DNA from: Sedimentisphaerales bacterium | Lineage (GTDB): Bacteria; Planctomycetota; Phycisphaerae; Sedimentisphaerales; SM23-30 | Assembly: GCA_963666285.1 (NCBI GenBank) | Contig: OY762711.1 | DNA length: 64,000 nucleotides | Strand: one strand, 5' to 3' | Shown here: positions 2,185 through 58,640 of the stretch, piece after piece | How positions within the stretch are numbered: position 1 is the stretch's first letter | How the letters are laid out: each line of letters opens with the position of its first letter | Translations under genes and position numbers: made by a program | The notes under the pieces: model-generated | Databases searched by the model: none | What the model was told of the DNA's origin: nothing | What the model saw: the letters and a program-made list of their open reading frames with translations, nothing else

Positions 2185-3396
2185 TCATTTCATTGCACGT
2201 CTATATACATCTATCAATTTCTCATAATGAGTATCCGAAGAATAATGTTTTTCCAGTTTACATCTAGCTGCTTTGCCCATTTTTGTAAGCACCTGGCTAA
2301 TAGACCACATATTCAGAATTTTATCCTTTAGATCTACAGCATCACCAGACTTAAACAGTATTCCTGTACTTCCATCATCGATCATCTCGGGTATCCCGCC
2401 AATATCAGCTCCTAAAACCGGCTTGCCATAGGCATAAGCTTCCAGAATTGACATCGGAGCATTTTCACACCATTCAGAAGGTACAACAGCAAAAGCTGCT
2501 CCCTGATAAAGGCTAGAGAGTTCATTCCCTGTTTTGTATCCCAACAACTCGACACTGCTAATATTATTATCAACAATGAAACTCTGTACCTGTTCTCTCA
2601 GAGGGCCATCACCAACTATCTTTAACGGAATATCCAGCCCGGCCATTGCTTTCAAAAGAGTCAAAACACCCTTCTCATGTGACAATCTCCCGGCATATAA
2701 TATATATTCACTATCCTCATAATTTACCAGATACTGGTCGGGATCTACAAAATTTGGGAGATAAACCAGTTTTTCTTCTGAAAAGCCACTTTCCAGCATT
2801 TTCCCCTGTATAAATTTGCTCGGACAGATATAATATCTGACTTTTTCCCATTTTTTGAACCATTTGTTATAGTATGATTCCATGGTATATACAGCAGATG
2901 CCAGAGTACTATTCTTATGGCATCTATTCTTTACACAATGCCAGTAATTTCTACCTTTACAATCCTCACATACCTGCCCTTTATTGAGCATTAGATATGA
3001 TGAGCAAATCAGTTTATAATCATGCAAAGTCAACACAGAAGGCATGTCCAGTTTATTAACTGCGTCCAAAACCGAAGTCGTCAGACCACCATAAATATTG
3101 TGAGCATGAACAACATCAGGGTTAAACTCTTTTAATACTATTTTTAGATTATCTGCAGCTTTTTTATTCCTTATAACATCAATAGCTCCTCTTACCTTAC
3201 CCAAACCTCTTAAGGCTTCAAAGTCAGCCTTTTCGGGAAAATATTTTTCATACTTACAAGTCTGGTTTTCTGGACATAGTTGCGAAAACCCGTTAACTTG
3301 ATGTCTATTTTCAAGCAGAAGTTCCTGCTCCTGAAACATTACCTTTTCAGAGCCGCCACGCAAATAATAATAATTGTTTAAAAAGAGGATATTCAA
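2185..3396 (-). CDS. GT4-family glycosyltransferase
   Basis: RGGSE, HAHNIY, TLHDY, GRLSHEKG, ENAPMSILEA. The TTG start overlaps the upstream TGA. Confidence 0.9.
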   Translation of the reverse strand: MNILFLNNYYYLRGGSEKVMFQEQELLLENRHQVNGFSQLCPENQTCKYEKYFPEKADFEALRGLGKVRGAIDVIRNKKAADNLKIVLKEFNPDVVHAHNIYGGLTTSVLDAVNKLDMPSVLTLHDYKLICSSYLMLNKGQVCEDCKGRNYWHCVKNRCHKNSTLASAVYTMESYYNKWFKKWEKVRYYICPSKFIQGKMLESGFSEEKLVYLPNFVDPDQYLVNYEDSEYILYAGRLSHEKGVLTLLKAMAGLDIPLKIVGDGPLREQVQSFIVDNNISSVELLGYKTGNELSSLYQGAAFAVVPSEWCENAPMSILEAYAYGKPVLGADIGGIPEMIDDGSTGILFKSGDAVDLKDKILNMWSISQVLTKMGKAARCKLEKHYSSDTHYEKLIDVYRRAMK

Positions 3397-9019: not shown

Positions 9020-9852
9020 GTATAGTATACGGCTTCATTAAAATATATTTTATGAAACTCTTTTACCGGCTTATTCAATAAAGGAGCAGGTGTTGGATAC
9101 ACATTCTCATCCCATATGTCACCCCACCGTGTTACTTGAGGCTTAAATACTGGAGGAAATTCATAATATATCTCAATATGCTTTTGCAGCATTTTACTAT
9201 CTGCTTCATTAGGCAATACTCTTACAGCATTGTATTGAGGCAAACATGATATCTCATTCACACCAAGTATATTTGCAATTTTTCTACGAACTCGCGGTAA
9301 AACAGAATTAGAATTTTCTGATATTACGCCTCTGCGTACCGGATCAAAACCGACATTTGAAAATGCTTTTTTCAAACTATAACAATCACCTGTAGGAACT
9401 GGATAATTATCCTCAAAGACAACATGCTTAAACCCAAACCACTTACACTGCATAAGTCTTTTATACGCATTCTGATGATCATCAAACATTACTAGCGAAT
9501 TATCTGGAATTTCTGACCAATCATGCTCAGAGAAATCTCTATCCGAATACTCAACTTTATCAGATATATACTGCCTATTACTGAGGTCCAAATCAATAGA
9601 TACAATCCTAGCCTCAGGACAAGCTTTCTCTAACAGCCAGGTGCTCTGCCCTTTCCAAACACCACTTTCAACTATTAATTCAGGTGATATTGTTTTCACA
9701 ATAAACCAAACTGCAAACAAATGTGGTGCTCGCATTCCCGATGTATTTTCTTTTATTGGACGATCCTTACAAAGAATAGAAAATTCTTCTAGTCCATCTA
9801 ATATCTCTTCTCGGGACCAAGGTGAATTACCTATTTCCATTACTTTATGCAT
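8983..9852 (-). CDS. hypothetical methyltransferase-fold protein
   Basis: IVESGVWKGQSTW resembles SAM-binding motif I; also FDDHQ and FEDNY. The ATG at 9852 has a GAGGA RBS. Confidence 0.6.
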   Translation of the reverse strand: MHKVMEIGNSPWSREEILDGLEEFSILCKDRPIKENTSGMRAPHLFAVWFIVKTISPELIVESGVWKGQSTWLLEKACPEARIVSIDLDLSNRQYISDKVEYSDRDFSEHDWSEIPDNSLVMFDDHQNAYKRLMQCKWFGFKHVVFEDNYPVPTGDCYSLKKAFSNVGFDPVRRGVISENSNSVLPRVRRKIANILGVNEISCLPQYNAVRVLPNEADSKMLQKHIEIYYEFPPVFKPQVTRWGDIWDENVYPTPAPLLNKPVKEFHKIYFNEAVYYTWICYVKLKLGQ

Positions 9853-9874
9853 ATTCAATCCTCATAAATACCAT

Positions 9875-11107
9875 TTACCGATTTAACTTACATCCATCCA
9901 TATAATATTTCAAAACTAATACAGCCATACCACTTTGTATAAATTTTGTAACGCATAATGATAGAGCAATCCCGACAAGCTGTAATTTGATTATCATTGG
10001 TATACCAAAAATAATAAATATAGAAAAACACACCAACGATTGTACAAATATTACCTTTGTACGTTCAAACACCACTACTCCAGCATTAAATAGAGATGCC
10101 AAAACTTCAAAAAATCGCGACATGCTCCAGAATAATATTACGATAAATGGCACACTATAAACATCTCCATAAAGTTTTTCAATCAAATCATTACCAATTA
10201 ACAAAATACATATAAATAATGGTAGAAATATAGCTAGTATTAACATAAAATATTTACGCAATGACTCTCTAAATTTTCCGACACTTTCATTAAAGCTTTT
10301 CACTAATCTAGGTGCAAATATATTTTGCAAAAGTATTGCTACAGGATTTAATAAACCAAACAACCCAACACAAACACCTATTAGCGGTATAACTGAATCC
10401 TGACCAAGTATTTTCAAAATAAATGGAAATGACGAATTGGTTATTAGATTTAATATGCACGTTAAAAAAATCCACTTACCAAATTTGAAATGCTCTTTAA
10501 ATGTTCGAATAAAATATGATAATTCATTTGGTGGCTTTTTACGATTCAAATAATAGTACCATATCAGAAGAGATGGAATTAGGTAAGCTATTACTATCGC
10601 TAGTAATACTGTTTCAATTTCAATAAAATTATTAAAATATAATATTCCAAACATAGCGAAAAATATCAAAAAACTTAAAATACTATTTGCAGCCGAGTAA
10701 AAATATTCTATTTTAGCTACAAATATCATACGAATAAAGTTACTTATAACATCGCTCAGTATCACCATTAATGATAATACAAAAAATATCACATTGAAAT
10801 ATTTACCTTCAAAAAATATACCATAAACACCTGTAAATATTATGATAACCAAAACCAACATTGACAACATAATAAAACTAACCATCCTATTATATTCTTC
10901 AGAGTTTATTTCATCTTTATGCACAAAAACCATATATGGCGAAATCACAATACTAGTAGTTAGAAAAAGAGCATAGATATAGAATGTTTGCAAAATAACA
11001 TAATAGCTATAATCGTTAGAGCATTGCCTTGCTATTATTATTCCAACTAAAAATCGTAATAAAGTTCTAAAAAATTGATCTATTATAAGAATACTAACTT
11101 GAAACAA
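9875..11107 (-). CDS. wzx: Wzx-type oligosaccharide flippase
   Basis: 410 aa with about 12 TM segments, directly downstream of wzc. TTG start. Confidence 0.75.
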   Translation of the reverse strand: MFQVSILIIDQFFRTLLRFLVGIIIARQCSNDYSYYVILQTFYIYALFLTTSIVISPYMVFVHKDEINSEEYNRMVSFIMLSMLVLVIIIFTGVYGIFFEGKYFNVIFFVLSLMVILSDVISNFIRMIFVAKIEYFYSAANSILSFLIFFAMFGILYFNNFIEIETVLLAIVIAYLIPSLLIWYYYLNRKKPPNELSYFIRTFKEHFKFGKWIFLTCILNLITNSSFPFILKILGQDSVIPLIGVCVGLFGLLNPVAILLQNIFAPRLVKSFNESVGKFRESLRKYFMLILAIFLPLFICILLIGNDLIEKLYGDVYSVPFIVILFWSMSRFFEVLASLFNAGVVVFERTKVIFVQSLVCFSIFIIFGIPMIIKLQLVGIALSLCVTKFIQSGMAVLVLKYYMDGCKLNR

Positions 11108-11229: not shown

Positions 11230-13389
11230 TCAGTGAATTCTCTCGCCTTCGCTTTGCATTCTATTGTTTACAGCCTCTATAACATTACTGCGGCCGTATC
11301 TTTTGGCAGCATAGCCGTATCGCTTTTTGCCAGAAGTTATATCATTCAGTACCACACCTGAAATATCAGCTCCCACCGAACGCATTGTATCAGCAGCCAT
11401 AGCACACTGATCTCTGCCGCTCTGGTCGGCCCGAACTACCATTACCGTAGTATCACAGAAACCTGCAATTATACGGGCATCGGCAACTGATAAAACTGGC
11501 GGAGTGTCAATAACTATTTTATCGTAACTTCGTTTTAACACATCCAGGATCTCAGGAAATACCCTTCCGGCCAGCAGGTCAGAATGGAAACTGCCGCCCG
11601 GCCCGCTGCTCAGCAGGTCAAGCCCAGAAATAGAAGTTGTTTCTATACATTCCGGTAAAACATCAATGCCTCTCTCCAGAGCTTTGGCCAGCCCGGTGCG
11701 TCTGCAAAGCTTACTATCGTGTATCTTTTGCTGTGCCGGGCTGCGAAAATCAGCGTCTACCAGCAGAACTTTTATGCCTGAATGTGCCATAGTTATGGCA
11801 ATATTACTGGCAACTACTGATTTACCCTCGCCCGGTGCCGGGGATGTAACCAAAACAATAGACTTGCCATGCCGAACTCCCTGGTAATAGAGGTGAGACC
11901 ATATCTCGCGAAATGCCTCTGCCGCTTCAGAAGCACCATCGACCTGCGATTTCATCCCTAATCGCCTGATACCTTCTCTGACCGGCATATTTGGCACGGT
12001 CCCCAGAATTTGAAGCCTGGTAGCAAGATTCACATCATGAACCGAGCTTACACTATTATCCTTTAACTCCAGTACCAGGCCGGCAAACATACCGGCCCAT
12101 AAGCCGATAACAAGTCCCACTGCAAGAATTTTTGCATAGCTCCTTTCAACGACACTACTTTGAATGTCAGCCCTTTCCATTATTGTAATATTCATTGAAT
12201 TGGAATTAACTGACAGACTCTCTTCTTTTATCCTGCGGTCAAGCGTATCATTAATATCATCTAAACGGGAAATCTCTTTTTTGAGAAATTCATATTCTGC
12301 GGCTTCTGAATTGGTATTCCAGGCAATATCTTTCTGCTCATCCAGTTTCTTACGCTGCTGCTGAACCTTTTTGGAACACGCTATCCATCGCTGAATAATA
12401 TTCTCGCGATATTCCCTGGCAATTCTAGCGGTATTTTCCTGGAGTTGACGATTGATAAGAGCTTTCTTCTCTAAAATAGAATAAACTGCCGGATGCTGAC
12501 CGGTAGCTTTTTGCTGTATATCTGAAAGCTGTTTTTCCAGGGTTTGAAGCTCTTCGCGAAGCCTTCGATCCTCCGAATCAGAAAAAGTTGAATCTGACAG
12601 GGCTAACGATTTGATTTGCTCAGGCTTATCTACCAGGGCATTTACCGTATCATAAAGAGTTTGAATTTCTGTCAGTTCCAACTCAGCTACTGTTAAGGCT
12701 TCCGATATTTTTGCCAGACGAGCCAGTTCAATATTATCACCCTCTTCAAGTGTAATAGCTCCATTTGACCGTGCAAGCTCAAAGAGCTTCTCTCGTTTTG
12801 TCTTGAGTTCAATTTCATTTGTCTGCTTTTCTTTTTGCATAACAGATATTACTTCTGAAGAAGTACTGCTGCTTTGCATATTATTGTGCAGGATATAAGC
12901 ATCGACCATGGAATTTATCACATTTGACAGCCAAAGAGGTTCGCTAGAATAACCGGAAATTGTGATTATATCGTCTGATTTACCCACAGAAACATCTATT
13001 TTATTTCTTAAATATTTTAATGGATCACTAATTCCGGCCTGCTTCATACTGCTTACCAGTTCGGTATCGGACAGAATATCTGTAATAATCGGCATTGACT
13101 GAATAACTTCGGCCTGGGCATTAAGGAAATTCCTGGAGTCAGCCATCTTTTCCTTTTTAGCGTCAATCAATCTTGGAGATGTCTTTTCAACAAATAATCT
13201 GCTGTATACATTATATTTAGCTGGTGCCACTAAAGCATAAACAGATGCAGCCAGCAAACCTACGACCCCACATAAAATAATAAGCTTATACCGCCGAGAT
13301 AGCAGTCTGTCTAATAGACCTTCTCTGCTGTTATTGACATCATCAATAATATCAAGTTGTGCTTCCAGATTGTTTTTGTTTTCAGACAA
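11230..13389 (-). CDS. wzc: Wzc-type polysaccharide co-polymerase / BY-kinase
   Basis: Two TM segments around a coiled coil; Walker A (PAPGEGKS), VLLVDADFR, IVIDTPP; short Tyr tail RYGY..RYG. Confidence 0.92.
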   Translation of the reverse strand: MSENKNNLEAQLDIIDDVNNSREGLLDRLLSRRYKLIILCGVVGLLAASVYALVAPAKYNVYSRLFVEKTSPRLIDAKKEKMADSRNFLNAQAEVIQSMPIITDILSDTELVSSMKQAGISDPLKYLRNKIDVSVGKSDDIITISGYSSEPLWLSNVINSMVDAYILHNNMQSSSTSSEVISVMQKEKQTNEIELKTKREKLFELARSNGAITLEEGDNIELARLAKISEALTVAELELTEIQTLYDTVNALVDKPEQIKSLALSDSTFSDSEDRRLREELQTLEKQLSDIQQKATGQHPAVYSILEKKALINRQLQENTARIAREYRENIIQRWIACSKKVQQQRKKLDEQKDIAWNTNSEAAEYEFLKKEISRLDDINDTLDRRIKEESLSVNSNSMNITIMERADIQSSVVERSYAKILAVGLVIGLWAGMFAGLVLELKDNSVSSVHDVNLATRLQILGTVPNMPVREGIRRLGMKSQVDGASEAAEAFREIWSHLYYQGVRHGKSIVLVTSPAPGEGKSVVASNIAITMAHSGIKVLLVDADFRSPAQQKIHDSKLCRRTGLAKALERGIDVLPECIETTSISGLDLLSSGPGGSFHSDLLAGRVFPEILDVLKRSYDKIVIDTPPVLSVADARIIAGFCDTTVMVVRADQSGRDQCAMAADTMRSVGADISGVVLNDITSGKKRYGYAAKRYGRSNVIEAVNNRMQSEGERIH

Positions 13390-41911: not shown

Positions 41912-42691
41912 TTAAACAAATACCAGCGGTCTGCCCGTTTCTGGATGTTTGCTTATTATTATATCTTCGTTATACGCCTGCGATATATGTTCAGCCGTTA
42001 TAACTTCTCCCGGTACGCCCGACGCTATCTTCTCGCCCTTATGCATCAATACCAGCTCATCACAATATTTAGCCGCCAGGTTCAGGTCATGCGTAACTAC
42101 CATCACTGCCTTGCCCGCTTGCGACTGCCTTGCCAGCAACGCAAAAAACGATCCCTGATGATGCAGATCCAATCCCGTCGTCGGCTCATCCAGCAAAAGG
42201 ATATTCGGCTCCTGTGCCAGTACCGAACCCAACAGTACCCGCTGCTGCTCACCACCGCTCAACTGGGCAATATCCCGACCGCGAAATTCCAATACCTCCG
42301 CCTCGGCCATTGCCTGCTCAATTACCTCTCTGTCATGGGCACTGCTAAAGCCAAAGCCTTTCAAATGGCAGTACCTGCCCATCGCCACAACCTGCTCAAC
42401 TGAATATCCGGACACAATATTTACATGCTGCGGCATATAGCCCAGCTCCACCGCTACCTCACGACGTGGCATCGTGCTCAGGTTTCGACCTCTTATTTCG
42501 ATCCGTCCGCTGCTAACATTCAATATACCGGCAGCCGCCTTTAGTAGTGTGCTCTTACCGGCTCCGTTAGGCCCTATCACGCCCACCATACGACCGCCAT
42601 GCAGCTCCATCGACACGCCGCGAACTTGCTCAATCTCGCCGTCATAACTGAAACTTAAATTATCAATTGTCAAAAGAGATTCATTTTTCAT
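41912..42691 (-). CDS. iron-chelate/cobalamin ABC transporter ATP-binding protein (BtuD/FecE-like)
   Basis: GPNGAGKST, LSGGEQQR, LLLDEPT, THDLNLA. Confidence 0.9.
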   Translation of the reverse strand: MKNESLLTIDNLSFSYDGEIEQVRGVSMELHGGRMVGVIGPNGAGKSTLLKAAAGILNVSSGRIEIRGRNLSTMPRREVAVELGYMPQHVNIVSGYSVEQVVAMGRYCHLKGFGFSSAHDREVIEQAMAEAEVLEFRGRDIAQLSGGEQQRVLLGSVLAQEPNILLLDEPTTGLDLHHQGSFFALLARQSQAGKAVMVVTHDLNLAAKYCDELVLMHKGEKIASGVPGEVITAEHISQAYNEDIIISKHPETGRPLVFV

Positions 42692-43625
42692 TGATACAGT
42701 TATACAACTCCTCCGCAATCTCTACCATCCTCACACCCGGTCTGTGCAGCAGATTTGCATCTATCAGATACACCATTCCATTTGCAACCGCAGGTACCTC
42801 CAGCGCTTGCCATTGCTTCAGTATCTCATCGCTGCTTTCCGCCAGCAGTTTTGGATCAACCGCCTCTATTATCACATCTGGTGCCCGGCTTATCAGCGAT
42901 TCACGCGAAATATCGGCATAAGGCAAAACGATATCAGAAAATATATTCTCGCCGCCGGCCAGGTGAATCATCTCGGTAAAACAGGTATCATTACCCGCTG
43001 TCGATAAGTTATTCAAAGTACCAGGCTTACGACCCAGACACAGAAATACCTTACGCCTTTTAACAACATCACCGCTCCTGTCCACCAGCCTTTTGCGAAT
43101 ATCCGTCAGACCGTCAAATATATTATTACACAGTTCAACACCCCGCTGCTCGCAGCCCAGTATCTTCGCCGTCAGCAATATCTCCTCATACACACATGCC
43201 AGATTTGACAACTTAAGATGCAGCTGCCGGATATTATTCTCCTCGCAATAATCTGATATTTTCTGGCTCTTACCCAAGGTAATTATCAGATCAGGCGTCA
43301 GCGATGCTATCGCCTCGAAATTCGTGTCAAAAAAACTGCCTACCTTTACCACGGTTTCAACTTCAGGTGGATAATCGCTAAACAGATCTGCTCCCACAAG
43401 CCTGTCCCCGCACCCCAGGGCATATACCAGCTCGGTACCTAAAGGCGTGACCGTAATTATACGCTGCGGAGATGACAAATCACTCACACTACCATAAGTG
43501 TTTTCTAATTCTGTACTTACGGAAATACTATCAGGAGTAGTACTGCTGCCGACCTGCATTATCAATACACCGATAACCGCAAGAACCAATGCCACAATAA
43601 AAGTTTTATCCATTTTCTGGATCAA
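42681..43625 (-). CDS. helical-backbone substrate-binding protein (BtuF-like)
   Basis: QRIIT.TP..TELVYALG.GDRLVG...SDYPPE, NFEAI.SL.PDL, AGGENIF, PAV.NG.VY, RPG.R. Confidence 0.85.
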   Translation of the reverse strand: MIQKMDKTFIVALVLAVIGVLIMQVGSSTTPDSISVSTELENTYGSVSDLSSPQRIITVTPLGTELVYALGCGDRLVGADLFSDYPPEVETVVKVGSFFDTNFEAIASLTPDLIITLGKSQKISDYCEENNIRQLHLKLSNLACVYEEILLTAKILGCEQRGVELCNNIFDGLTDIRKRLVDRSGDVVKRRKVFLCLGRKPGTLNNLSTAGNDTCFTEMIHLAGGENIFSDIVLPYADISRESLISRAPDVIIEAVDPKLLAESSDEILKQWQALEVPAVANGMVYLIDANLLHRPGVRMVEIAEELYNCINEK

Positions 43626-49483: not shown

Positions 49484-49946
49484 CGCCATGCATATGATGC
49501 AAAGCATAAACCGCACCAATATAAAACGTCGGAAAAAAATTAGCGACCACTTTTAATATAAATGGAATTAGCGGGTTTTTCACATTAAGGTCTCATAATT
49601 ATTTTAAAAATATATAACATATAGAAATTATAAATGAAATATTACAATAATATTAATAGTACCATACTGACATTAATGTTGAAAATAATATAACACAAAA
49701 TTTAACAAAAAGCCTTATAGTTTCAACGAAATAACGAAATAAATGCAACTTAAAATAAAAGTTTAATAAAAAAACAAAAATACTCATTTTCACCAGAAGT
49801 TCAAGTAATGGTTTTCCCAGCTAGTAACAGAGTCTTAAATATGACAGGTATTATCTTAACCTGCATTTCAAATATATCGATTAATCATTGGACAAGAGAG
49901 AAAAATATAAACACCTATGATAATACCTACACAGAAGGAGATGTTA

Positions 49947-51431
49947 ATGTTTGCAAAGAAAAATAAAATAAGCTTTAAAGTTCTGATGCTTCCGGTTATA
50001 GCGTTAATTTGTATGGGAGGATTATACTCTAGCGAGCAATATGTCAACTCTGCGGTTTCAAACGATGTAATAATGCCTGAATTTAACAAATCAGTTTTAA
50101 ACAGCAAAAAGGAAGCCTTAAAATCAGCTATTGATGTTGAAGCCACCCTCTTGGCTAAAGCTCTTGCAGGCATAAATGACACTGACAAAAAAATAGAAAT
50201 TATCGGACAATACATTCAGGATGTCAGATTTATGGGTGAAGATAAAACTTATATCTTTATTAACTCAACTGACGGGGCCAGCGTCTATCACCCGATAAAC
50301 CCATCGATTATGGGCGCGGATATGTCTCAAGCTAAAGACCCCGATGGAATCTATTTTACCCAGGAATTCATCAAGGCAATCAAAGAAAAAGGTGAAGGTT
50401 TTGTTAATTACTCCTGGGCTAAAGGAGACCTCGGACCTCAACCGAAAATAAGCTATGTAAAAGCTATCCCCGGAACAAATTTATATGCCGGAGCTGGTGT
50501 ATATATTGATGATATTGAAAAGGAAAAAGCAGCATTAACAGCTTCTATCCAGGATAAAAAAAGCCAATATACGGTTTATAAAGGAATTGGAATAACATTA
50601 TCATTAATTGTATTAATATTATCATCCGGCCTGATTGCAAAAAGCATTATTCTTCCTTTGAATAAAGCAATTAGCTCCTTAACAAAAGCAATGGCGGAGA
50701 TTACAGAAGCATCGGAAAACATCTCTTGCAGTGCCAATAACCTGGCTAATAACGCCAACAATCAGGCCGCGTCGATAGAAGAAACAAGTAGCTCACTCGA
50801 AGAAATAAATTCGACAATAAAAGCAACCTCAGAAAACTCAGGAAAAGTTAGCGTACTGGCTGAATCTTCAAGACAAGTCTCACAAAAAGGACAGGAATCC
50901 ATATCTCAAATGACATCGGCAATGGAAGGTATAAAAAAGTCATCGCAGGAAATCGGTAATGTTATCAAGATAATTGATGAAATTGCTTTCCAGACAAACC
51001 TGCTCGCCTTAAACGCTGCGGTTGAAGCTGCTCGAGCAGGCGAAGCAGGAAAAGGATTTGCTGTTGTGGCAGAAGAAGTTCGCAATCTTGCGATGCGTTC
51101 GGCAGAAGCTGCAAAGGGAACTTCCAGGATGATCGAAGAAGCTGTAAAAAGCTCCCAAAATGGTGGAAAAATCGTAACCGAAGTATCAGAAGCATTTCAT
51201 GAATTTTCTGACTCAACCGATCAAGTTAACCAATTGATATCAGAAATACATAATGCGTCAAAAGAACAATCGAATGGCATCGAACTGATCAGCCAGGCTA
51301 TGGTGCAAATCGATCATTCCACCCAGGCTATCACGGCTAATGCCGAGGAAGATGCCACTGCTGCCATGCAGCTAAAGGAACAGGTGCAATATGTACATAA
51401 TGTTGCTGATGAATTGAAAGAGATGATTTAG
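49947..51431 (+). CDS. methyl-accepting chemotaxis protein with a Cache sensor domain
   Basis: [26 protein letters not shown] sensor, and [30 protein letters not shown]. Start taken at MFAKK (AAGGAG RBS). Confidence 0.93.
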
Positions 51432-51609: not shown

Positions 51610-52491
51610 TTATTTCGTGTCAAACAGTGAATTATTTTCCGGACCGAACCAGCCCAGCTTATTGGCAATTGTACCCTGCTCGTCAGTTTTACCATGTGTG
51701 GTATATTCTGTTGAAAAACTCATTGCTTCTGCTGTAACATGACCGTCCGCCCACGCAGTATTTGTAAACCTGCCATGACGAAAATGAATTGTAGGATCAG
51801 GCATACCATCTACTTCCATAGCTTTGTCACGACTATAACCACTGCTGCCAAACGCATCTACATACCACGGCCAGAACGGTGGATGAACAAAAGAGTACTC
51901 AATCAACCCCTGCTTACCATTTCCAAGATCCTGGTTAAACGCTGTATCTGCAAACATAACCGTTGAATGAGGCTTCTTGACCTTTGTCTCATTCGCACTA
52001 TAATTACCACCCTTAGCAATACCATACTCATCGACCCGGCCGCCAATATATTCGCTGTTATAGCCATAACCGCCGCAACCGGCCTCAAAATTACCATCAA
52101 CCTGTCCCGCCTCGGCATAATAATGCCGCTCCTTAAAGGATGGGCATCTCTTTAGCTCTCCTTCGCCAATATATTTTGCCAGCGGCCCCCTTGCGGCATC
52201 AAATGCCTCATTTACACTATCACGAACTCCATGCCAGCGATGGTGATTATAATTAATATCTTTTGCCGCCAAAACATAATACCCTCTGTTATCCATCGCA
52301 TAGTTTGTGTTTGCCAGGAAAAGCTGCCGTTCATTTGACGCACATACTACCCGGCGGCCCTGTCCGCGGGCATTCGCTAATGCCGGTAAAAGGATACTAA
52401 CCAGCAGTGCGATAATTGATATCACTACCAGTAACTCTATCAGGGTAAAACCTGATGCCTGTTTTCTACTATTGTAAATCAAATTTGGCAT
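51610..52491 (-). CDS. prepilin-type N-terminal cleavage/methylation protein with H-X9-DG motif (DUF1559-like)
   Basis: [27 protein letters not shown]......C.SN.RQ and [13 protein letters not shown]. Confidence 0.92.
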
Positions 52492-52530
52492 ATATTTGTA
52501 ATATCGGCTCTATAGTTAGATAATGCTTAA

Positions 52531-52691
52531 GGTGACTTTTGGAAATTGCTTTTGATGCGATAGTTTAAGATTTTGGTTGCTGACAAGAAACATAAAATCG
52601 TGCATATTGGTCTATATTCACTGTTTTATGTGACGCATGCCGGCAGGCAAAAGTAAAACTTGTCGCTCAAAATGAATTTTCAGAGTGTGCC
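52531..52691. mobile_element. palindromic MITE-like element, copy 2 (longest)
   Basis: GG...CC ends, about 36-bp imperfect TIRs and an internal hairpin; TTAA on both flanks, with the right TTAA containing the stop codon of the upstream gene. Confidence 0.75.
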
Positions 52692-53939
52692 TTAATCTCG
52701 TTTAACCGAGTTTAACCAGTTCGTCGCCAGCAGGTATAAATCATTGATATCGATAAACCTGTTCTCATCAAAGTCACCCTGCGGCCAGTTTCCATACATA
52801 TTCCACCGGTTCGCCAGGCGGATAAAATCTGCCATATTCACCTTTCCATCTGAATTAGCATCACCGTAAAGCTGTTCAATCGCCCCGATAGCCTCAAGGT
52901 CAAAACCGCCAGAACCCCAGGTTACCCACGCATCATATACACTATGATTGGTTTGAAAATATTCTCCCCCTTCACCTGTTTCTGGGTCTATACTATTGGG
53001 ATCAATAAGTTCAATGGCCGAATCCTCATAAAAACCACTGCCGGGGATATCCACTATTTTAATGTAGTTAATATTCTGCAGATCAACATCGCCATTTATC
53101 ACCGCCTCGCTGTTTGCCAGATCTTTCAGGTTAAACGGCGTACCCCATGTACGTTCATAAGCATTTACATGTTTGCCTGCCAGATTATACACATTCGATG
53201 GGTCTATTGTACCATATGCTCCTACCTTTGCACTGGTAAGCGAAACCGACGGAAACCGGGCAAACATTTCTCCGTCTGTCGATACCTCAACATAAGCCAG
53301 CTCGGCAAATATCTGGCCGCCAATACCTGCTCCGCCTGCCGAGATAAAACCATTCTCAAATACAGCGAAGTCCGGGCCAGGTCCATCGCAAAGTGGATCA
53401 TCAAAGGAAACAGTAACCTGGCCCGGTTGGATTTTATACGGATCATTAGGATCCAGTATATCATTATCCGCATAATTAGGATCTGAAGGATCAAGCACAT
53501 TAAGCTGGCTTTCATGCAGATCGCCCAATACACATACATCAAAATTATCACCGGTCACGGGGCCTAACGAAGCTTCTGGCCTGCGCCAGTCCTTAGGAAC
53601 GCCGCCATAATACGTATAGCTTTCCCGCCCTATCAACGCAGCACTTGCTGCCGGGGCAGGAATATAGTTTTGATACCCGGTTGCCCATTGCCTGAAAACT
53701 GGGTTAACACGTAAACTGTTTGGATCATCATTTCCACCCGGCTCTTCATCATTAGATCCTGCCGGGCAAATCCCCCTTGTACTGCCGCTGATGTATCCCG
53801 GTATTCCGGCATCAGCCGCCGTTGGATGGCGATTCTCCATCGCGGTTGAATAATGCCCGTAATATTCGCCTTCCTGTCCGTTAAAAGCAAATATTACCGA
53901 TGCAAATATTAAACTTACAAAAAATACTTTAATTGCCAT
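52692..53939 (-). CDS. secreted cell-surface protein with a C-terminal dockerin-like repeat
   Basis: Signal peptide from MAIK; DGPGPDFAVFENGF..FAELAYVEVSTDG..NLAGK..GTPF.L..SGGFDLEAI; tail GDANSDGKVNMADF..W..GDFDENRFIDINDL..NWL. Confidence 0.8.
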   Translation of the reverse strand: MAIKVFFVSLIFASVIFAFNGQEGEYYGHYSTAMENRHPTAADAGIPGYISGSTRGICPAGSNDEEPGGNDDPNSLRVNPVFRQWATGYQNYIPAPAASAALIGRESYTYYGGVPKDWRRPEASLGPVTGDNFDVCVLGDLHESQLNVLDPSDPNYADNDILDPNDPYKIQPGQVTVSFDDPLCDGPGPDFAVFENGFISAGGAGIGGQIFAELAYVEVSTDGEMFARFPSVSLTSAKVGAYGTIDPSNVYNLAGKHVNAYERTWGTPFNLKDLANSEAVINGDVDLQNINYIKIVDIPGSGFYEDSAIELIDPNSIDPETGEGGEYFQTNHSVYDAWVTWGSGGFDLEAIGAIEQLYGDANSDGKVNMADFIRLANRWNMYGNWPQGDFDENRFIDINDLYLLATNWLNSVKRD

Positions 53940-54130
53940 TTCTATCCTTACATAATATCCGAGACAGGACACATAATTATGCCCTGTCTCATTATATCTA
54001 AATTATTCAAAGTGACAGATTTTACACTTTTTATTGCTGTAAAACAATTTAATGCAAATTGTTATATTAATGATTTAATTAGCTTGCCGCTTTGCGGCAA
54101 ACCTTCCCTAATACCAAATAACTAATACCT

Positions 54131-54157
54131 CTCAAACTGACCATCGGTCAGTTTGAG
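54131..54157. other. perfect 12-bp hairpin right after the PEP-CTERM gene (possible mRNA stabiliser)
   Basis: CTCAAACTGACC-ATC-GGTCAGTTTGAG; no U tract on the minus strand. Confidence 0.5.
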
Positions 54158-54161
54158 TAAA

Positions 54162-55250
54162 TTACTGCTTTCTCCGGCGTCGAGCTATTAACATTCCGCC
54201 CAAACCTAAAATCGTCATAGTAGCCGGTTCAGGAACCATGGTAATCTCAGAAATGCCCGCATTAAAACCAAAAGTTCCATACAGAGAATCTCCTTCAAGA
54301 AAATTACCGTCAATATCCAAACCGCCATACCAGCCAAACCCCTGGGTGGAATCCAGGGTTGCGATCACCTCGTAATTAATGCCGCTGCCGATTGCCATGC
54401 TTTCATTCCACATTATTACTTCGGAAGTGCCATTCATAAAATCGTTATATGTCACAAAAACATTTCCGCCATCGTCAACTGTGATACCGTTAGCCCCGTC
54501 ACTAAGGTCTGACAGCAAAATAGCATCGTCCAGCGTTAATATTTCATCAACTTCACCGGCTTCGATATCGTCAAAGACAGAACTTACCAGCCCGGCATCC
54601 CACTTATATAAAGCAGAGCTGCCAAAATTATAAGTCGCATAATAAATATTACCTGACTTATCAACTGTCATCGAAGCTGAATTACCTAGTGTCTGGATAA
54701 GGGTATCATGCTGGCAAACACCACCGCTATTGGTTACCGAACTATCAGAAATATATCTGAAAATATAATTCTCCTGGCCGTAGCCGCCGTTCCATGGCTC
54801 GTTCAGCCCGGAAAAATACAAATCGCTACCGATTGTATCGGCCCCGTAAGCGTTAACCGCACTTGTCGAGCCGGTTTTCCATTCCCCGCTATTATGATCG
54901 TATTCATAAATATGGGCGTCACTTGAACCACTTATCGTTGCGGCATAAAACGTATTTGTCTCAGGGTTATAAACACCAAAGGCGTCGCCCCCTCCATTCG
55001 ATTCAACTCCGCTATCTGGCTTGCCGATCAGGGTGGTATCTCCTGTGGCTGCGTTGGTGGTATAGTAACCGTCACCAGTGTTCCAGTAATGGAGCACTCC
55101 ATCATAAACAGTAAAATCTGTTACCGTTGCTATTGTTGTTATATCTCGCGCTGAATACTTGCTTGTATCAACATCAACATAATCTGATAAATCTGCAGCA
55201 TTAACATAAGCAGAAATGCTCAGCAGCATTATTATTAGTTTTTTATTCAT
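54162..55250 (-). CDS. PEP-CTERM surface protein, probable beta-propeller
   Basis: Signal peptide; NHL-like blades (SMTVDKSGNIYYA, GITVDDGGNVFVT); VPEPATMTILGLGGMLIARRRRK. Confidence 0.85.
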   Translation of the reverse strand: MNKKLIIMLLSISAYVNAADLSDYVDVDTSKYSARDITTIATVTDFTVYDGVLHYWNTGDGYYTTNAATGDTTLIGKPDSGVESNGGGDAFGVYNPETNTFYAATISGSSDAHIYEYDHNSGEWKTGSTSAVNAYGADTIGSDLYFSGLNEPWNGGYGQENYIFRYISDSSVTNSGGVCQHDTLIQTLGNSASMTVDKSGNIYYATYNFGSSALYKWDAGLVSSVFDDIEAGEVDEILTLDDAILLSDLSDGANGITVDDGGNVFVTYNDFMNGTSEVIMWNESMAIGSGINYEVIATLDSTQGFGWYGGLDIDGNFLEGDSLYGTFGFNAGISEITMVPEPATMTILGLGGMLIARRRRKQ

Positions 55251-55268
55251 TTTTTATTTTCCCTTTCC

Positions 55269-56015
55269 TTAATATGCTTTCTTTCTACGTGACACCATCA
55301 AACCACCTAAACCTAATATCGCCAGCGTGGCTGGTTCCGGCACCACCCCGTTCAAGGCCTCTACGTAATTAATCTCGGTGCTGAAATAGCCAAATATTCC
55401 GGCTGAATCATCTGTCGCGGTCCTGATACGAACATAGGCAATATCGGTTAAGCTGACATAATTGCCATCTGCATCAATTGCCTCGCTCAAATCGATTAAA
55501 TCTCCGCCTACGGTTACATCTGCATAACCCGTAACGCTATTTGACCAGTTGGAATTATAGGGATAACCAACAGATAAAGCACTGTCTCTTGGGTCGCCAA
55601 CTAAATCATAATTGCTGGTCTTGATCAGATAAAATGTCTCGTCCATCCAGCCGTCAGCTGTTGCGCCATCGCCATCAGTTTCGCAGGCTACCTCTACATA
55701 GCCCGGTTCATACCAGCTTGACATTGGGTTACCTACTATATTAAGATCTGCTCCGTCACCGTTTAGAATTGAGGTACTGAAACCAAGACAGATTCCGACC
55801 GCTCGGTCATTTGTACCCTGATCCGGGTTATCTGACCATCTGCCAAGTGAAACGATATCTGATGTGTTCAGAGCGTTTTCCGGGGTAGCATAATAGCCGC
55901 CATGGGTTTGTACTCCCTGCTCATAATAGCATAGTACATCACATATGGTCCCAGCATGAGACATCATTGGCAGACAAATTATTGTAAGCATTATATTTAT
56001 TACTCTTTTTAACAT
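55269..56015 (-). CDS. PEP-CTERM surface protein, first gene under the B12 riboswitch
   Basis: Signal peptide; VSLG..GF...I.NG.G.D..I.GN...EPG.V.V..GYAD..D.S.AIDADG..V.L..I.YV.I.T..G..STEI; VPEPATLAILGLGGLMVSRRKK. Confidence 0.85.
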   Translation of the reverse strand: MLKRVINIMLTIICLPMMSHAGTICDVLCYYEQGVQTHGGYYATPENALNTSDIVSLGRWSDNPDQGTNDRAVGICLGFSTSILNGDGADLNIVGNPMSSWYEPGYVEVACETDGDGATADGWMDETFYLIKTSNYDLVGDPRDSALSVGYPYNSNWSNSVTGYADVTVGGDLIDLSEAIDADGNYVSLTDIAYVRIRTATDDSAGIFGYFSTEINYVEALNGVVPEPATLAILGLGGLMVSRRKKAY

Positions 56016-56020
56016 ATTTT

Positions 56021-56143
56021 ATTTCTCCGTAATTCTGTTGTTTTTGTTTCTTATAAATTCCAACTTTGAGCCTTCAATATAAATTATCTACATTGGTTTC
56101 ACCTCCATTCTTACTGGTGATGAGGCTCTGATTACGGAGAAAT
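56021..56143 (-). promoter_or_regulatory. long-range anti-SD/SD inverted repeat
   Basis: ATTTCTCCGTAAT (56021-56033) and ATTACGGAGAAAT (56131-56143) form a perfect 13-bp IR. On the mRNA the downstream arm is the GGAGA RBS of 55269-56015. Confidence 0.65.
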
Positions 56144-56345
56144 TTGCCTTTACAAGCCGTTTCTGCAATTGCTTTCAGGCATATTGCATTTAACCGAAAT
56201 TTGCTTATAATATTTGTTGCTAGGAAGCCGGTTTCCGGTTTCGCGGGGCGTTGGCATCTCCTTGTCAGCGCCCCTTTCCATTAAAACTCTTACCTCAAAT
56301 CTCTCTTACCAAAAGATACACCCGGGCACGAGCCATACGCGTAAT

Positions 56346-56383
56346 AAAAAAAGCCGCTGTTCCGGCGAAAGGAACAACGGCTT
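56346..56383 (-). terminator. intrinsic terminator in the riboswitch leader (expression platform)
   Basis: Minus strand AAGCCGTTGTTCC-TTTCGCC-GGAACAGCGGCTT-TTTTT. Confidence 0.85.
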
Positions 56384-56475
56384 AGTTGTTTGCTATGTCA
56401 GGGGTTACGGCATTGTCTATCTGGCAATCCGACTGATGCAGTTCTTTTCGCGAGAACAAAATACAAGTTCATCAT

Positions 56476-56640
56476 ACAGGTATTCTGACTCTCGCTCTAT
56501 CGGATATCACCTTCCCAACTAATTCTATTAATCAGTGGCATAAGATATCTGAATTTCTGGTATGACCAGATCGAACGATCACAGCGGCGCGACCGTCGTG
56601 GATTTTCACCACGTTCCCTGCCAGGCTCTAAACAGCCTGT
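56476..56640 (-). ncRNA. cobalamin (B12) riboswitch
   Basis: Minus strand ACAGG..GGGAA CGTGGTGAAAATCCACG ACGGTCGCGCCG CTGTGA..GCCACTG..GGGAAGG..GAGTCAGAATACCTGT. The conserved B12-element blocks and the B12 box are in the expected order. Confidence 0.93.
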
Positions 56641-56671
56641 CTTCTTTTCTAATTGTTAAAGAACATCATCA

Positions 56672-56700
56672 ATAATACTCTTAGCCTTTTTAGATGTCAA
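56672..56700 (-). promoter_or_regulatory. sigma-70 promoter for the riboswitch transcript
   Basis: Minus strand TTGACA-17bp-TATTAT, about 30 bp upstream of the aptamer. Confidence 0.75.
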
Positions 56701-56831
56701 AGAAAAAGATCTGGAACTATTTTTTACTCAATTTTAGTAGCGAATTATATTTTGTTAAGTATTTAGGACTGTTACAGTTGCACTGGATTATTCGCTGGAT
56801 ATATATATGGACCCACCTTATAATCTCTATT

Positions 56832-58640
56832 ATGGAAACGGAAAATATAAATCTGAATACCGAAAATTCTCCGGCACCGCCCCCCCGGCAAAAGGGCATG
56901 CGGGCTGCTGTTATACTTTCATTACTGACAATCTTTATGCTCTGGCTCAGTCAGGAACCGGCAGGATGGAGCTTCCTTTCATGGTTCGCACTTGTCCCCT
57001 GGGTCGTCGCAACCGTTCGCTGCGAACGATATCTCAAAATGGCGGCCGTTAACTGGGCCTGCGGTTCACTTTACTTTGTCATCAGCCTGTACTGGCTCTG
57101 GGATATCACCGGACCCGGCATGATAGCACTGTCTATCTACCTCGGACTTTACTTCGTTATCTCAGGTTTTATTCTCAGACGCGTTTACGTCGCCCGCAGA
57201 CGGTGGTGGTTCTCTGTCTGCCTGCCGATCGTATGGGTCGGCCAGGAATACCTCCGCGGCACTGTCATGACAGGATTCCCATGGCTGTTCATTTCACACA
57301 CTCTCATCGACTACCGAATTGCACAGGTCGCTGAGATTACCGGCGCTTACGGCGTTACCTTCCTCGCGGCCATGGTCAACGGCCTGCTCTGTGATGGACT
57401 GCTCAGACCACTGTTCGATATCAACCCGCGCACCGGACAGAGACGCGCCGCCGGACTATTCCGCATGCTGCTGGTAGGCGTCATTATCTCAGGTGCCCAC
57501 CTGTACGGCACACTGCGACGCAACTACGTCGCCAACAACAGCACACCCGGACCAATCGTCACCGTCATACAGGACACCATCCCGCAATCAAATAAAGATT
57601 CCGCCGCAAACTTCGACAATATGTTCGACAGCCATATCAGGCTCAGCCAACAGGCCGCTGATGATAATGTCAAAGAAAACCTTATCATCTGGCCCGAGAC
57701 TATCGTACCGGCACATATCAACCAGGAGTTCCTTGACCTGAAACAAAGATATGATTTCCTTACCGAAAACTTTAAAGATCGTGTCGACGCAGCACATAAA
57801 TACAACGACCGGTTAATGAAACTGGCCAAAGATACCAACACCGGGTTACTGGTCGGCACTCCCGGTATGGTTTTGAGATTGTCAGACGATAAATCAGGAG
57901 TTGAAATCGACAGGACAAACTCGGCGGTCATGTATAAAAATAACGGCGACCGGTTCGGGCAGCGGTACGACAAGATCCATCGCGTTCCTTTCGGCGAATA
58001 TGTACCGTTCAAAGAATCCATACCATGGCTCAATAAACTACTGCTGAACCTTACTCCTTACGATTACGACTACAGTATCTTACCAGGCAGAAACCCTGTC
58101 AGGTTCGATGTTCAGCAGTCAACCGAAGAAACCGAAAACCGCCCCGCCCAGACAAACAATTACGGCTACGCCGTTGCTATCTGCTATGAAGATGTTATCC
58201 CACAGACCGCTATACTGCTGAGCAATTACGAAGGCATTGACTTCCTGGTAAATATCAGCAACGAAGGCTGGTACGTCACTCCGCACGAACTCGATTGCGG
58301 CGGCGGCATCATCGAGGTTACTCCATCCAGCGAATTAATGCAGCATTGGAATATCAGCCGATATCGTGCCATCGAAAACCGGATCGGTATCGTCCGATCG
58401 GTCAACTGCGGCATAAGCGGGTTCATCAAACCTGACGGCTACGCCCAGACCTCCGGCACCGGCACTCTCTCTGAACTGCCACAGGACCGACGCTGCCAGG
58501 TCGGATACCTGACCGATAACGTCTGGCTCTATAAAGGCGGCAAGACCATATATGCAAGAATCGGCGACTCTTTCGCTATCACCTGCACCATCCTTATGGG
58601 ATTAATATTTGTTGTAACCCTGAAAAAATCTCGTAATTAA
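56832..58640 (+). CDS. lnt: apolipoprotein N-acyltransferase
   Basis: TGFPW, IIWPET, YDKIHRVPFGEY, ICYED, NISNEGW, RAIENR. Start taken at METEN. Confidence 0.93.
   Translation: METENINLNTENSPAPPPRQKGMRAAVILSLLTIFMLWLSQEPAGWSFLSWFALVPWVVATVRCERYLKMAAVNWACGSLYFVISLYWLWDITGPGMIALSIYLGLYFVISGFILRRVYVARRRWWFSVCLPIVWVGQEYLRGTVMTGFPWLFISHTLIDYRIAQVAEITGAYGVTFLAAMVNGLLCDGLLRPLFDINPRTGQRRAAGLFRMLLVGVIISGAHLYGTLRRNYVANNSTPGPIVTVIQDTIPQSNKDSAANFDNMFDSHIRLSQQAADDNVKENLIIWPETIVPAHINQEFLDLKQRYDFLTENFKDRVDAAHKYNDRLMKLAKDTNTGLLVGTPGMVLRLSDDKSGVEIDRTNSAVMYKNNGDRFGQRYDKIHRVPFGEYVPFKESIPWLNKLLLNLTPYDYDYSILPGRNPVRFDVQQSTEETENRPAQTNNYGYAVAICYEDVIPQTAILLSNYEGIDFLVNISNEGWYVTPHELDCGGGIIEVTPSSELMQHWNISRYRAIENRIGIVRSVNCGISGFIKPDGYAQTSGTGTLSELPQDRRCQVGYLTDNVWLYKGGKTIYARIGDSFAITCTILMGLIFVVTLKKSRN

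Follow-up and report, generated by a model that had tools for sequence, protein, structure and literature searches.

How a bacterium might obtain vitamin B12 through an operon that is controlled by a cobalamin riboswitch and encodes no TonB-dependent receptor is the question raised by four genes at positions 51610..56700 (minus strand) of a 64,000-nt stretch of DNA, here called the window, from a Sedimentisphaerales bacterium (class Phycisphaerae; assembly GCA_963666285.1, contig OY762711.1). B12 exceeds the size admitted by ordinary porins, and the known route across the outer membrane is a TonB-dependent receptor. It is very probable that the unit is used, in one way or another, to acquire B12. 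The explanation favoured here, at a probability of about 0.55 and as judged from sequence, is that it is a B12 capture operon in which a pilin would replace the receptor BtuB, carrying B12 inward on a filament through a secretin.

The host genome (labelled G000) is 6.35 Mb in size, with a completeness of 97%. The survey of the class covers 151 genomes, most of them draft assemblies, and absences are therefore read as "not found". Labels of the form G### denote surveyed genomes, L### fetched loci and P#### homologues of the fourth open reading frame (ORF4); the class referred to throughout is Phycisphaerae.

The pilin and its riboswitch across genomes

ORF4 (293 aa; 51610..52491, minus strand) encodes a prepilin with the motif G/FTLIEL, a predicted type IV pilin core carrying large insertions, and a literal H-X9-DG (H239...D249-G250). 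PF07963 and TIGR02532 (N_methyl) match above cut-off, and the predicted model has a helix at residues 17-67. The earlier description of a prepilin/H-X9-DG protein is borne out as far as these motifs go, but in a hidden Markov model search the protein matches neither TIGR04294 nor DUF1559; TIGR04294 is matched by 34 of 82 members of its subfamily. There are approximately 40 pilin paralogues in the host genome, with ORF4 in one subfamily. On a subfamily profile made from the head region of the cluster and built without ORF4, ORF4 reaches 173 bits, and the runner-up among 53 genomic prepilins gets 37.5 bits. In a quick tree of 46 switch-linked pilins and 39 G000 paralogues, with support from the approximate likelihood-ratio test (SH-aLRT), ORF4 falls within a 13-member set with support of 99.

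Along its length the structural model of ORF4 (predicted local distance difference test, pLDDT, 92.1) aligns to pilin cores at low Z, and some 150 residues are inserted; the residues invariant in the subfamily include W86, G140, G150 and R238. All of the top 20 structural matches are pilins or pseudopilins, and 5HZ7 and 2NBA appear in this search. A Foldseek search returned nothing at E<=0.001, which does not in itself show a new fold. In the ESM Atlas, the head of ORF4 leads to unnamed clusters (mostly from Verrucomicrobiota where known) and to one with 12% PF07596, matches that are to be taken as a lead only. Ten of 150 ORF4 homologues (P0191, P0205, P0206, P0240, P0257, P0278, P0286, P0299, P0312, P0336) are single ORFs in which a domain like that of ORF1 or ORF3 comes first, an anchor helix and a basic stretch come next and the pilin comes last. 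It is possible that this topology would let the prepilin peptidase separate binder and pilin; it is also possible that some are assembly errors. Elsewhere in the host genome, a TonB-dependent receptor gene is directly followed by another H-X9-DG pilin paralogue (C1:3876678-3880096, minus strand).

Outside the host genome, 148 riboswitch matches were listed for the class, of which 9 with less than 2.6 kb of contig downstream were left out; 23 further matches fall outside the list. The 139 loci fetched, with up to 10 kb downstream of each, form two sets (120 + 19). A prepilin of the ORF4 subfamily is present behind 116 of these 139 switches (101/120 and 15/19; L151 and L193 are one operon), and a TonB receptor behind two. 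Any prepilin at all is found in 3.6% of random 10-kb stretches of G000. The genes ahead of the pilin vary, and include DUF4465, ORF1-like, ORF3-like, propeller and unnamed families. The 23 switch loci that have no pilin are accounted for by nrd/metE genes (6), cob operons (4), radical-SAM genes (3), truncated contigs (4), binder-only loci with the pilin elsewhere in the genome (4), a receptor locus (1) and one unassigned case. Switches before a radical-SAM/SPASM gene were seen at L126, L127 and L139, in G020, G019 and G132.

The subfamily is found, by a profile trained on class genomes, in 144 of the 151 class genomes, mostly as a single copy. The TonB plug PF07715 is found in 67 of the 151, and 78 of the 144 pilin carriers have no detectable plug. 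The pilin was not found in seven genomes (G019, G096, G132, G023, G103, G129, G045). Three of these, G019, G096 and G132, which belong to three families, are the only carriers of CbiC in the survey, the gene being not found in the other 148 of 151; the association between CbiC and pilin absence has a Fisher p of 6e-5, related genomes not being independent. In G023, G103 and G129 there is neither pilin nor switch. Behind the G045 switch stand a TonB receptor and TonB, and after them come the neighbours that in related genomes come after binder-pilin cassettes. All seven absences fit a receptor-like role for the pilin. In Desulfosarcina the same binders, encoded by DUF4465 and ORF1-like PEP-CTERM genes, flank a TonB receptor that comes after them, and a search of 3 Desulfobacterota genomes did not recover the pilin subfamily.

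The pilin behaves in genomes like BtuB and not like an accessory binder: it is the constant part and swaps with a TonB receptor, while the binders are interchangeable. The expectation that the order of riboswitch, binder and pilin would be conserved is upheld by the class loci. The idea that the pilin is one more accessory subunit gives way, since it is the part that stays and that is exchanged for a receptor as BtuB would be.

Across the phylum, the subfamily is matched in 44 of 251 genomes. From the 25 matches in 23 genomes outside the class, 20 pilins were fetched; 16 have a switch upstream, and in 12 of these 16 the pilin is the first gene, 127-384 nt away. Reading downstream in 11 of the pilin-first loci, 10 have no binder, 6 have a DUF6580 gene and btuF-like genes occur in 2 (in one of them as btuFCD-cobQ-cobO). 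DUF6580 is a transporter-like membrane protein. The fact that these loci lack a binder and carry DUF6580 or btuF-like genes would reduce the minimal unit to a switch, a pilin and an inner-membrane transporter. In L205, L206, L207, L210, L212 and L213 the gene next to, or almost next to, the switch-led pilin on its downstream side encodes a DUF6580 protein, twice with a PF01902 gene, and these proteins are candidates for an inner-membrane cobamide transporter. In Pirellulales, classical DUF1559 pilins occur with a switch and an ORF1-like binder (L007 10774-11634; L012 8568-9470; L013 10513-11006), which suggests a second recruitment from the same superfamily.

The leader, the predicted binders and the probable inner-membrane step

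The riboswitch proposed from the sequence was recovered by Rfam search as a cobalamin aptamer (RF00174; 56458..56683, minus strand) at 64.5 bits (E 1.2e-13), the gathering threshold being 31.5 bits. The match spans the full model (positions 1-189) and is the sole Rfam match in the window; the core is canonical, with poor P1 pairing in the Rfam alignment. The promoter and terminator claimed on either side are also present. There is a predicted sigma-70-type site (TTGACA-17-TATTAT, 11/12 consensus matches) at 56672..56700 on the minus strand and, 75 nt downstream of the aptamer, an intrinsic terminator with a 13-bp hairpin and a U-run (56351..56383, minus strand) as the expression platform. The promoter-like site ties for best among 29 sites, for which chance alone would give 16.9, so its consensus by itself is weak; what counts is its place at the 5' end of the aptamer. 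In the predicted ligand-free ensemble of the finished leader the terminator dominates (pair probabilities 0.81-1.0). A segment of the aptamer, with a predicted duplex of -11.5 kcal/mol with the 5' arm of the terminator, is a candidate antiterminator. A possible second riboswitch in the leader was rejected, as the BcKCsr2 match lies under its gathering score and reflects the terminator, and RF00174 alone passes. Between the terminator and ORF1 there is another GC-rich hairpin (56245-56274), possibly a processing or stability element.

Behind this leader, four co-oriented minus-strand ORFs (248, 362, 426 and 293 aa as called) are located as described from the sequence, and the absence of a TonB receptor, cob gene or bypass enzyme from the unit holds for the four products. 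ORF1 and ORF2 are both PEP-CTERM proteins as had been read, with TIGR02595 above cut-off in each, and the host has two exosortase genes (PF09721).

ORF1 (248 aa; 55269..56015, minus strand) has a signal-peptide-like N-terminus, a BtuH-type B12-binding domain and the PEP-CTERM anchor. A profile of ORF1 and 35 relatives matches 8BLW_B (E 2.8e-16) and 7BIZ_A (E 1.5e-10), the only two solved structures at E<=0.1. From this sequence comparison ORF1 is a homologue of the BtuH domain, the C-terminal domain of BtuH2/BtuG1. The unit is for this reason less anonymous than had been assumed. In BtuH2, according to the portions of PMC13616437 and PMC8941943 consulted, five residues hold metals that bridge to the B12 phosphate. 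Asn399, Glu406, Asp522, Ser582 and Glu584 correspond to ORF1 N96, E103, D166, S212 and E214, and among 36 family members these sites are conserved as N in 35/36, E in 36/36, D in 36/36, S/T in 36/36 and E/D in 36/36. D166 was placed through the GYAD alignment of 8BLW, and BtuH2 numbering, taken as chain position +100, was mapped in this analysis. The corrin contacts (His476, Tyr510, Trp511, Trp577) are less clearly kept, the His476/Tyr510 region aligning poorly or being missing. A switch is found upstream in 7 of 8 loci of ORF1 relatives. With a PEP-CTERM anchor in place of a lipoprotein anchor and no receptor in its unit, ORF1 is named a BtuH-domain protein and not a BtuH lipoprotein.

ORF2 (362 aa; 54162..55250, minus strand) is predicted to be a six-bladed beta-propeller with a PEP-CTERM anchor. 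Its model (pLDDT 88.7) has as best structural match the PknD sensor (Z 23.7, root-mean-square deviation, rmsd, 2.8, 236 residues aligned), and the six blades follow from the strand count and the best matches. The assignment of ORF2 as BtuG, which is seven-bladed, was rejected on this predicted blade number; BtuG is also missing among the listed matches, which alone excludes nothing. Relatives of ORF2 are present behind switches in L010, L012, L059 and L201. In the proposal that the binders are the equivalents of BtuG and BtuH, the BtuH half is accordingly sustained, by the homology of ORF1 and its five site residues, and the BtuG half is not.

ORF3 (52692..53939, minus strand) more likely starts at the ATG at 53939, which has an AAGGA site, giving 415 aa instead of 426. 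The product is a predicted secreted protein, as had been read, but the dockerin match of its tail is just under cut-off (20.8 against 22.9 bits) and the tail is described here as dockerin-like. Judged by profile comparison with the ORF1 family (hhalign 96.6%, E 5.3e-10, over 91 columns), ORF3 appears to contain a domain distantly paralogous to the BtuH-type one of ORF1. N207 (104/104) and E224 (103/104) of its family correspond to the first two metal ligands; there is no direct match of ORF3 to 7BIZ or 8BLW. DUF4465 is also carried by 16 of 120 ORF3 homologues among the matches listed, and the ESM Atlas places ORF3 near a LIC_13355-like cluster, again as a lead only. Overall the surface-scavenging reading gains support from the homology and intact site of ORF1, the probable paralogy of ORF3 and the conserved gene order.

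Two further cobalamin switches are present in the host genome. One (L004 9119-15363; C1:4027118-4033362) controls nrdD, nrdG-like, dCTP-deaminase-like and metE genes, a combined B12-bypass operon. The other (L005 14028-15206; C1:5844027-5845205) immediately precedes the gene of a DUF4465 (BtuJ-type) protein whose tail is PEP-CTERM-like; B12 is bound by DUF4465 proteins of six lineages, according to the part of PMC13398666 consulted. There is no CbiC match in the host, CobS, CobT and CobU were not found by BLAST, and split MetH-like corrinoid genes are present, so the organism likely needs a finished cobamide. A btuF-like and btuD-like gene pair (41912..43625, minus strand), 8 kb downstream of the unit, includes the only PF01497 protein of the host and is the best genomic match to the genes directly after the pilin in L050, L082 and L154. 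It likely provides the inner-membrane step, outside the unit. A btuC-like permease is far off (C1:5834168-5835259), approximately 9 kb from the DUF4465 switch locus.

Among the remaining features, three strong hairpins without U-runs lie in the gap between ORF2 and ORF3 (53960-54160) and may be processing or stability elements. The unit is flanked by a divergent apolipoprotein N-acyltransferase gene (56694-58640, plus strand) and a convergent methyl-accepting chemotaxis protein gene (49917-51431, plus strand); no link between either and the unit was found.

The proposed role of the pilin and its alternatives

If the pilin replaces BtuB, low B12 would allow transcription to pass the terminator of the Rfam-identified switch. 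ORF1 and ORF2, by their observed sorting signals, would be displayed through exosortase and ORF3 through its tail. ORF1, and probably ORF3, would bind B12 at the metal/phosphate site that homology to BtuH points to. ORF4 would be processed and built into a filament of the type II secretion system (T2SS) or type IV kind, bind B12 on its enlarged head and be drawn in through a secretin, a step drawn wholly from gene context and fold. BtuF/C/D-like proteins, the genes for which are observed, would then finish import. The host has 7 secretin matches and, by inspection, at least 3 T2SS-like clusters.

Several observations weigh against this explanation. There is no filament or secretin gene in the operon, the pilin-fold match of ORF4 is low (best Z 5.5, rmsd 3.4, 123 aligned), and in the quick tree the branch that parts the 46 switch-linked pilins from the 39 host paralogues has 77% SH-aLRT. 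Outside the class, 4 of the 20 pilins have no switch (one at a contig end, three in intact loci), with no degenerate switch before any of the four at E<=1. In two Pirellulales loci the same slot is taken by a classical DUF1559 pilin, for which the subfamily profile gives 12 and 4 bits. G008 holds both the pilin and a switch-linked receptor. The host itself holds 7 TonB receptors; not one of them follows a switch or comes close to the btuB cut-off, but because the btuB model also misses the Bacteroides and Caulobacter receptors, G000 may still have an unregulated B12 receptor. On the side of the binders, BtuH2 Trp577 aligns to Ile207 of ORF1, the insertion around His476 is absent, and no sequence or fold link from ORF2 to a B12 binder is found among the listed matches.

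The pilin may instead bind B12 while its N-terminal helix keeps it tethered to the inner membrane, where it would collect the vitamin in the periplasm for BtuFCD or DUF6580, with the outer membrane crossed by a porin, an idle secretin or an unrecognised receptor. Such a role would suit a pilin that often lies beside btuF/C/D-like or DUF6580 genes, with no filament genes in any operon read and a wider family that Pfam names SBP_bac_10. It is nevertheless rather unlikely: as BtuF-like proteins occur alongside the pilin, a second periplasmic binder would be redundant, an outer-membrane receptor fills the pilin slot in G045 and Desulfosarcina, and the cleavage motif and pilin core are conserved. 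Pseudopilins function in export, and the pilin might be an adaptor that puts the PEP-CTERM binders on the surface through a T2SS without contact with B12; it is usually the last gene, after the binders, and the fused ORFs join binder-like domain, anchor and pilin. An alginate-induced pseudopilin, with 67 paralogues, is read as possibly tied to alginase export in a proteomics paper of 2026 (PMC13274419). That the pilin comes first behind the switch in most out-of-class loci, nearly all of those read downstream having no binder in the stretch covered, makes this role improbable, as does the fact that one pilin subfamily goes with unrelated binder folds and that PEP-CTERM binders are found in Desulfobacterota (3 genomes searched) without the pilin.

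Both PEP-CTERM proteins and pilins have links to floc formation and adhesion, and ORF2 has no known ligand. In L010 (Desulfatiglandales), cobalamin and c-di-GMP-I switches stand in tandem before the same binders; the three pairs (2758-3135, 9318-9886, 11848-12275) precede arrays of secreted and PEP-CTERM-like proteins. A B12-repressed unit for adhesion or partner-finding, by which starved cells would attach to B12 producers or biofilm, is nonetheless very unlikely, since it explains neither the exchange of the pilin for a TonB receptor plus TonB, nor the neighbouring btuFCD genes, nor the BtuH metal site. There is also the question of how many genes the switch controls. The gaps before ORF3 and ORF4 are 222 and 200 nt, the ribosome site of ORF4 is weak, and the ORF2-ORF3 gap contains hairpins and a 10/12 promoter-like site at 54018-53991. 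With such gaps, the co-transcription of ORF1 to ORF4 in this genome can only be inferred. The same features would allow ORF1 and ORF2 alone to be under the switch, with ORF3 and ORF4 transcribed separately and their position historical. This is highly improbable, as neither gap hairpin has a U-run on the operon strand and in many genomes a switch immediately precedes orthologues of ORF3 and ORF4, the genes often abutting.

Relation to known systems and meaning

The Bacteroides thetaiotaomicron Btu relay (BtuJ, BtuH, BtuG, BtuB and BtuFCD), as far as the portions consulted of PMC13616437 and PMC8941943 describe it, likewise has cobalamin-riboswitch control and more than one B12 binder at the surface, as is predicted here. 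ORF1 shows homology to the BtuH domains in 7BIZ and 8BLW, BtuF/C/D-like genes are present, and DUF4465/BtuJ is found behind the second host switch and in 17/120 class loci. In contrast to the relay, the binders here have PEP-CTERM or dockerin-like tails and no lipoprotein anchors, the propeller is predicted to be six- and not seven-bladed, and there is no BtuB in the unit, the constant partner being the pilin. In a 2026 review of the relay, pilin, pilus, PEP-CTERM, Planctomycetes and Verrucomicrobia go unmentioned. With BtuB the pilin shares the regulatory slot, as first or core gene behind the switch and beside btuFCD, and in G045 BtuB-TonB-type uptake stands in place of the pilin cassette; unlike BtuB, neither ORF4, with its predicted pilin fold, nor the other three products have a plug or barrel.

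The prepilin N-terminus, the H-X9-DG and the many paralogues in the host are shared with the DUF1559 (PF07596)/TIGR04294 proteins, but ORF4 misses both models, and its subfamily occurs in nearly every genome of the class, as a single copy, and goes with one ligand-sensing switch. In the part of PMC10632474 consulted, DUF1559 proteins are described as of unknown function, and 2 of 68 paralogues in Planctopirus limnophila as essential. The literature searched, which mostly excludes subscription journals and supplements (where regulon tables could list the genes), holds no link between a pilin and B12 and no such small-molecule import. The structures 5HZ7 and 2NBA relate to ComP, the ligand-binding minor pilin of DNA-uptake competence pili. 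As there, a pilin-fold protein would bind an outside ligand and bring cargo in through a secretin; unlike there, the cargo would be a 1.3-kDa cofactor and not a polymer. The novelty rests on the pilin, the binder half being BtuH-type domains on exosortase anchors outside Bacteroidota. What is added here is the mapping of the BtuH site, the class-wide profile, the loss of the pilin from each of the three CbiC carriers and its replacement by a TonB receptor at the same chromosomal site.

In more than half of the 151 class genomes no TonB receptor was detected, yet a B12 switch and one dedicated pilin are kept by nearly all of them. Should the pilin indeed carry B12, small molecules would be imported in a way that is new, and a very large family of unknown function would have its first ligand. 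More tentatively, and with rather more doubt than confidence, the H-X9-DG/DUF1559 pilins might be ligand-specific import adaptors, each loading one nutrient on a type II secretion or type IV filament that would run inward through a secretin. Were that so, the B12 pilin would be the first of the family to which a cargo can be assigned, its paralogues, dozens in each genome, would form a receptor repertoire, and these pilins would do the work of TonB receptors in lineages that have few or none.

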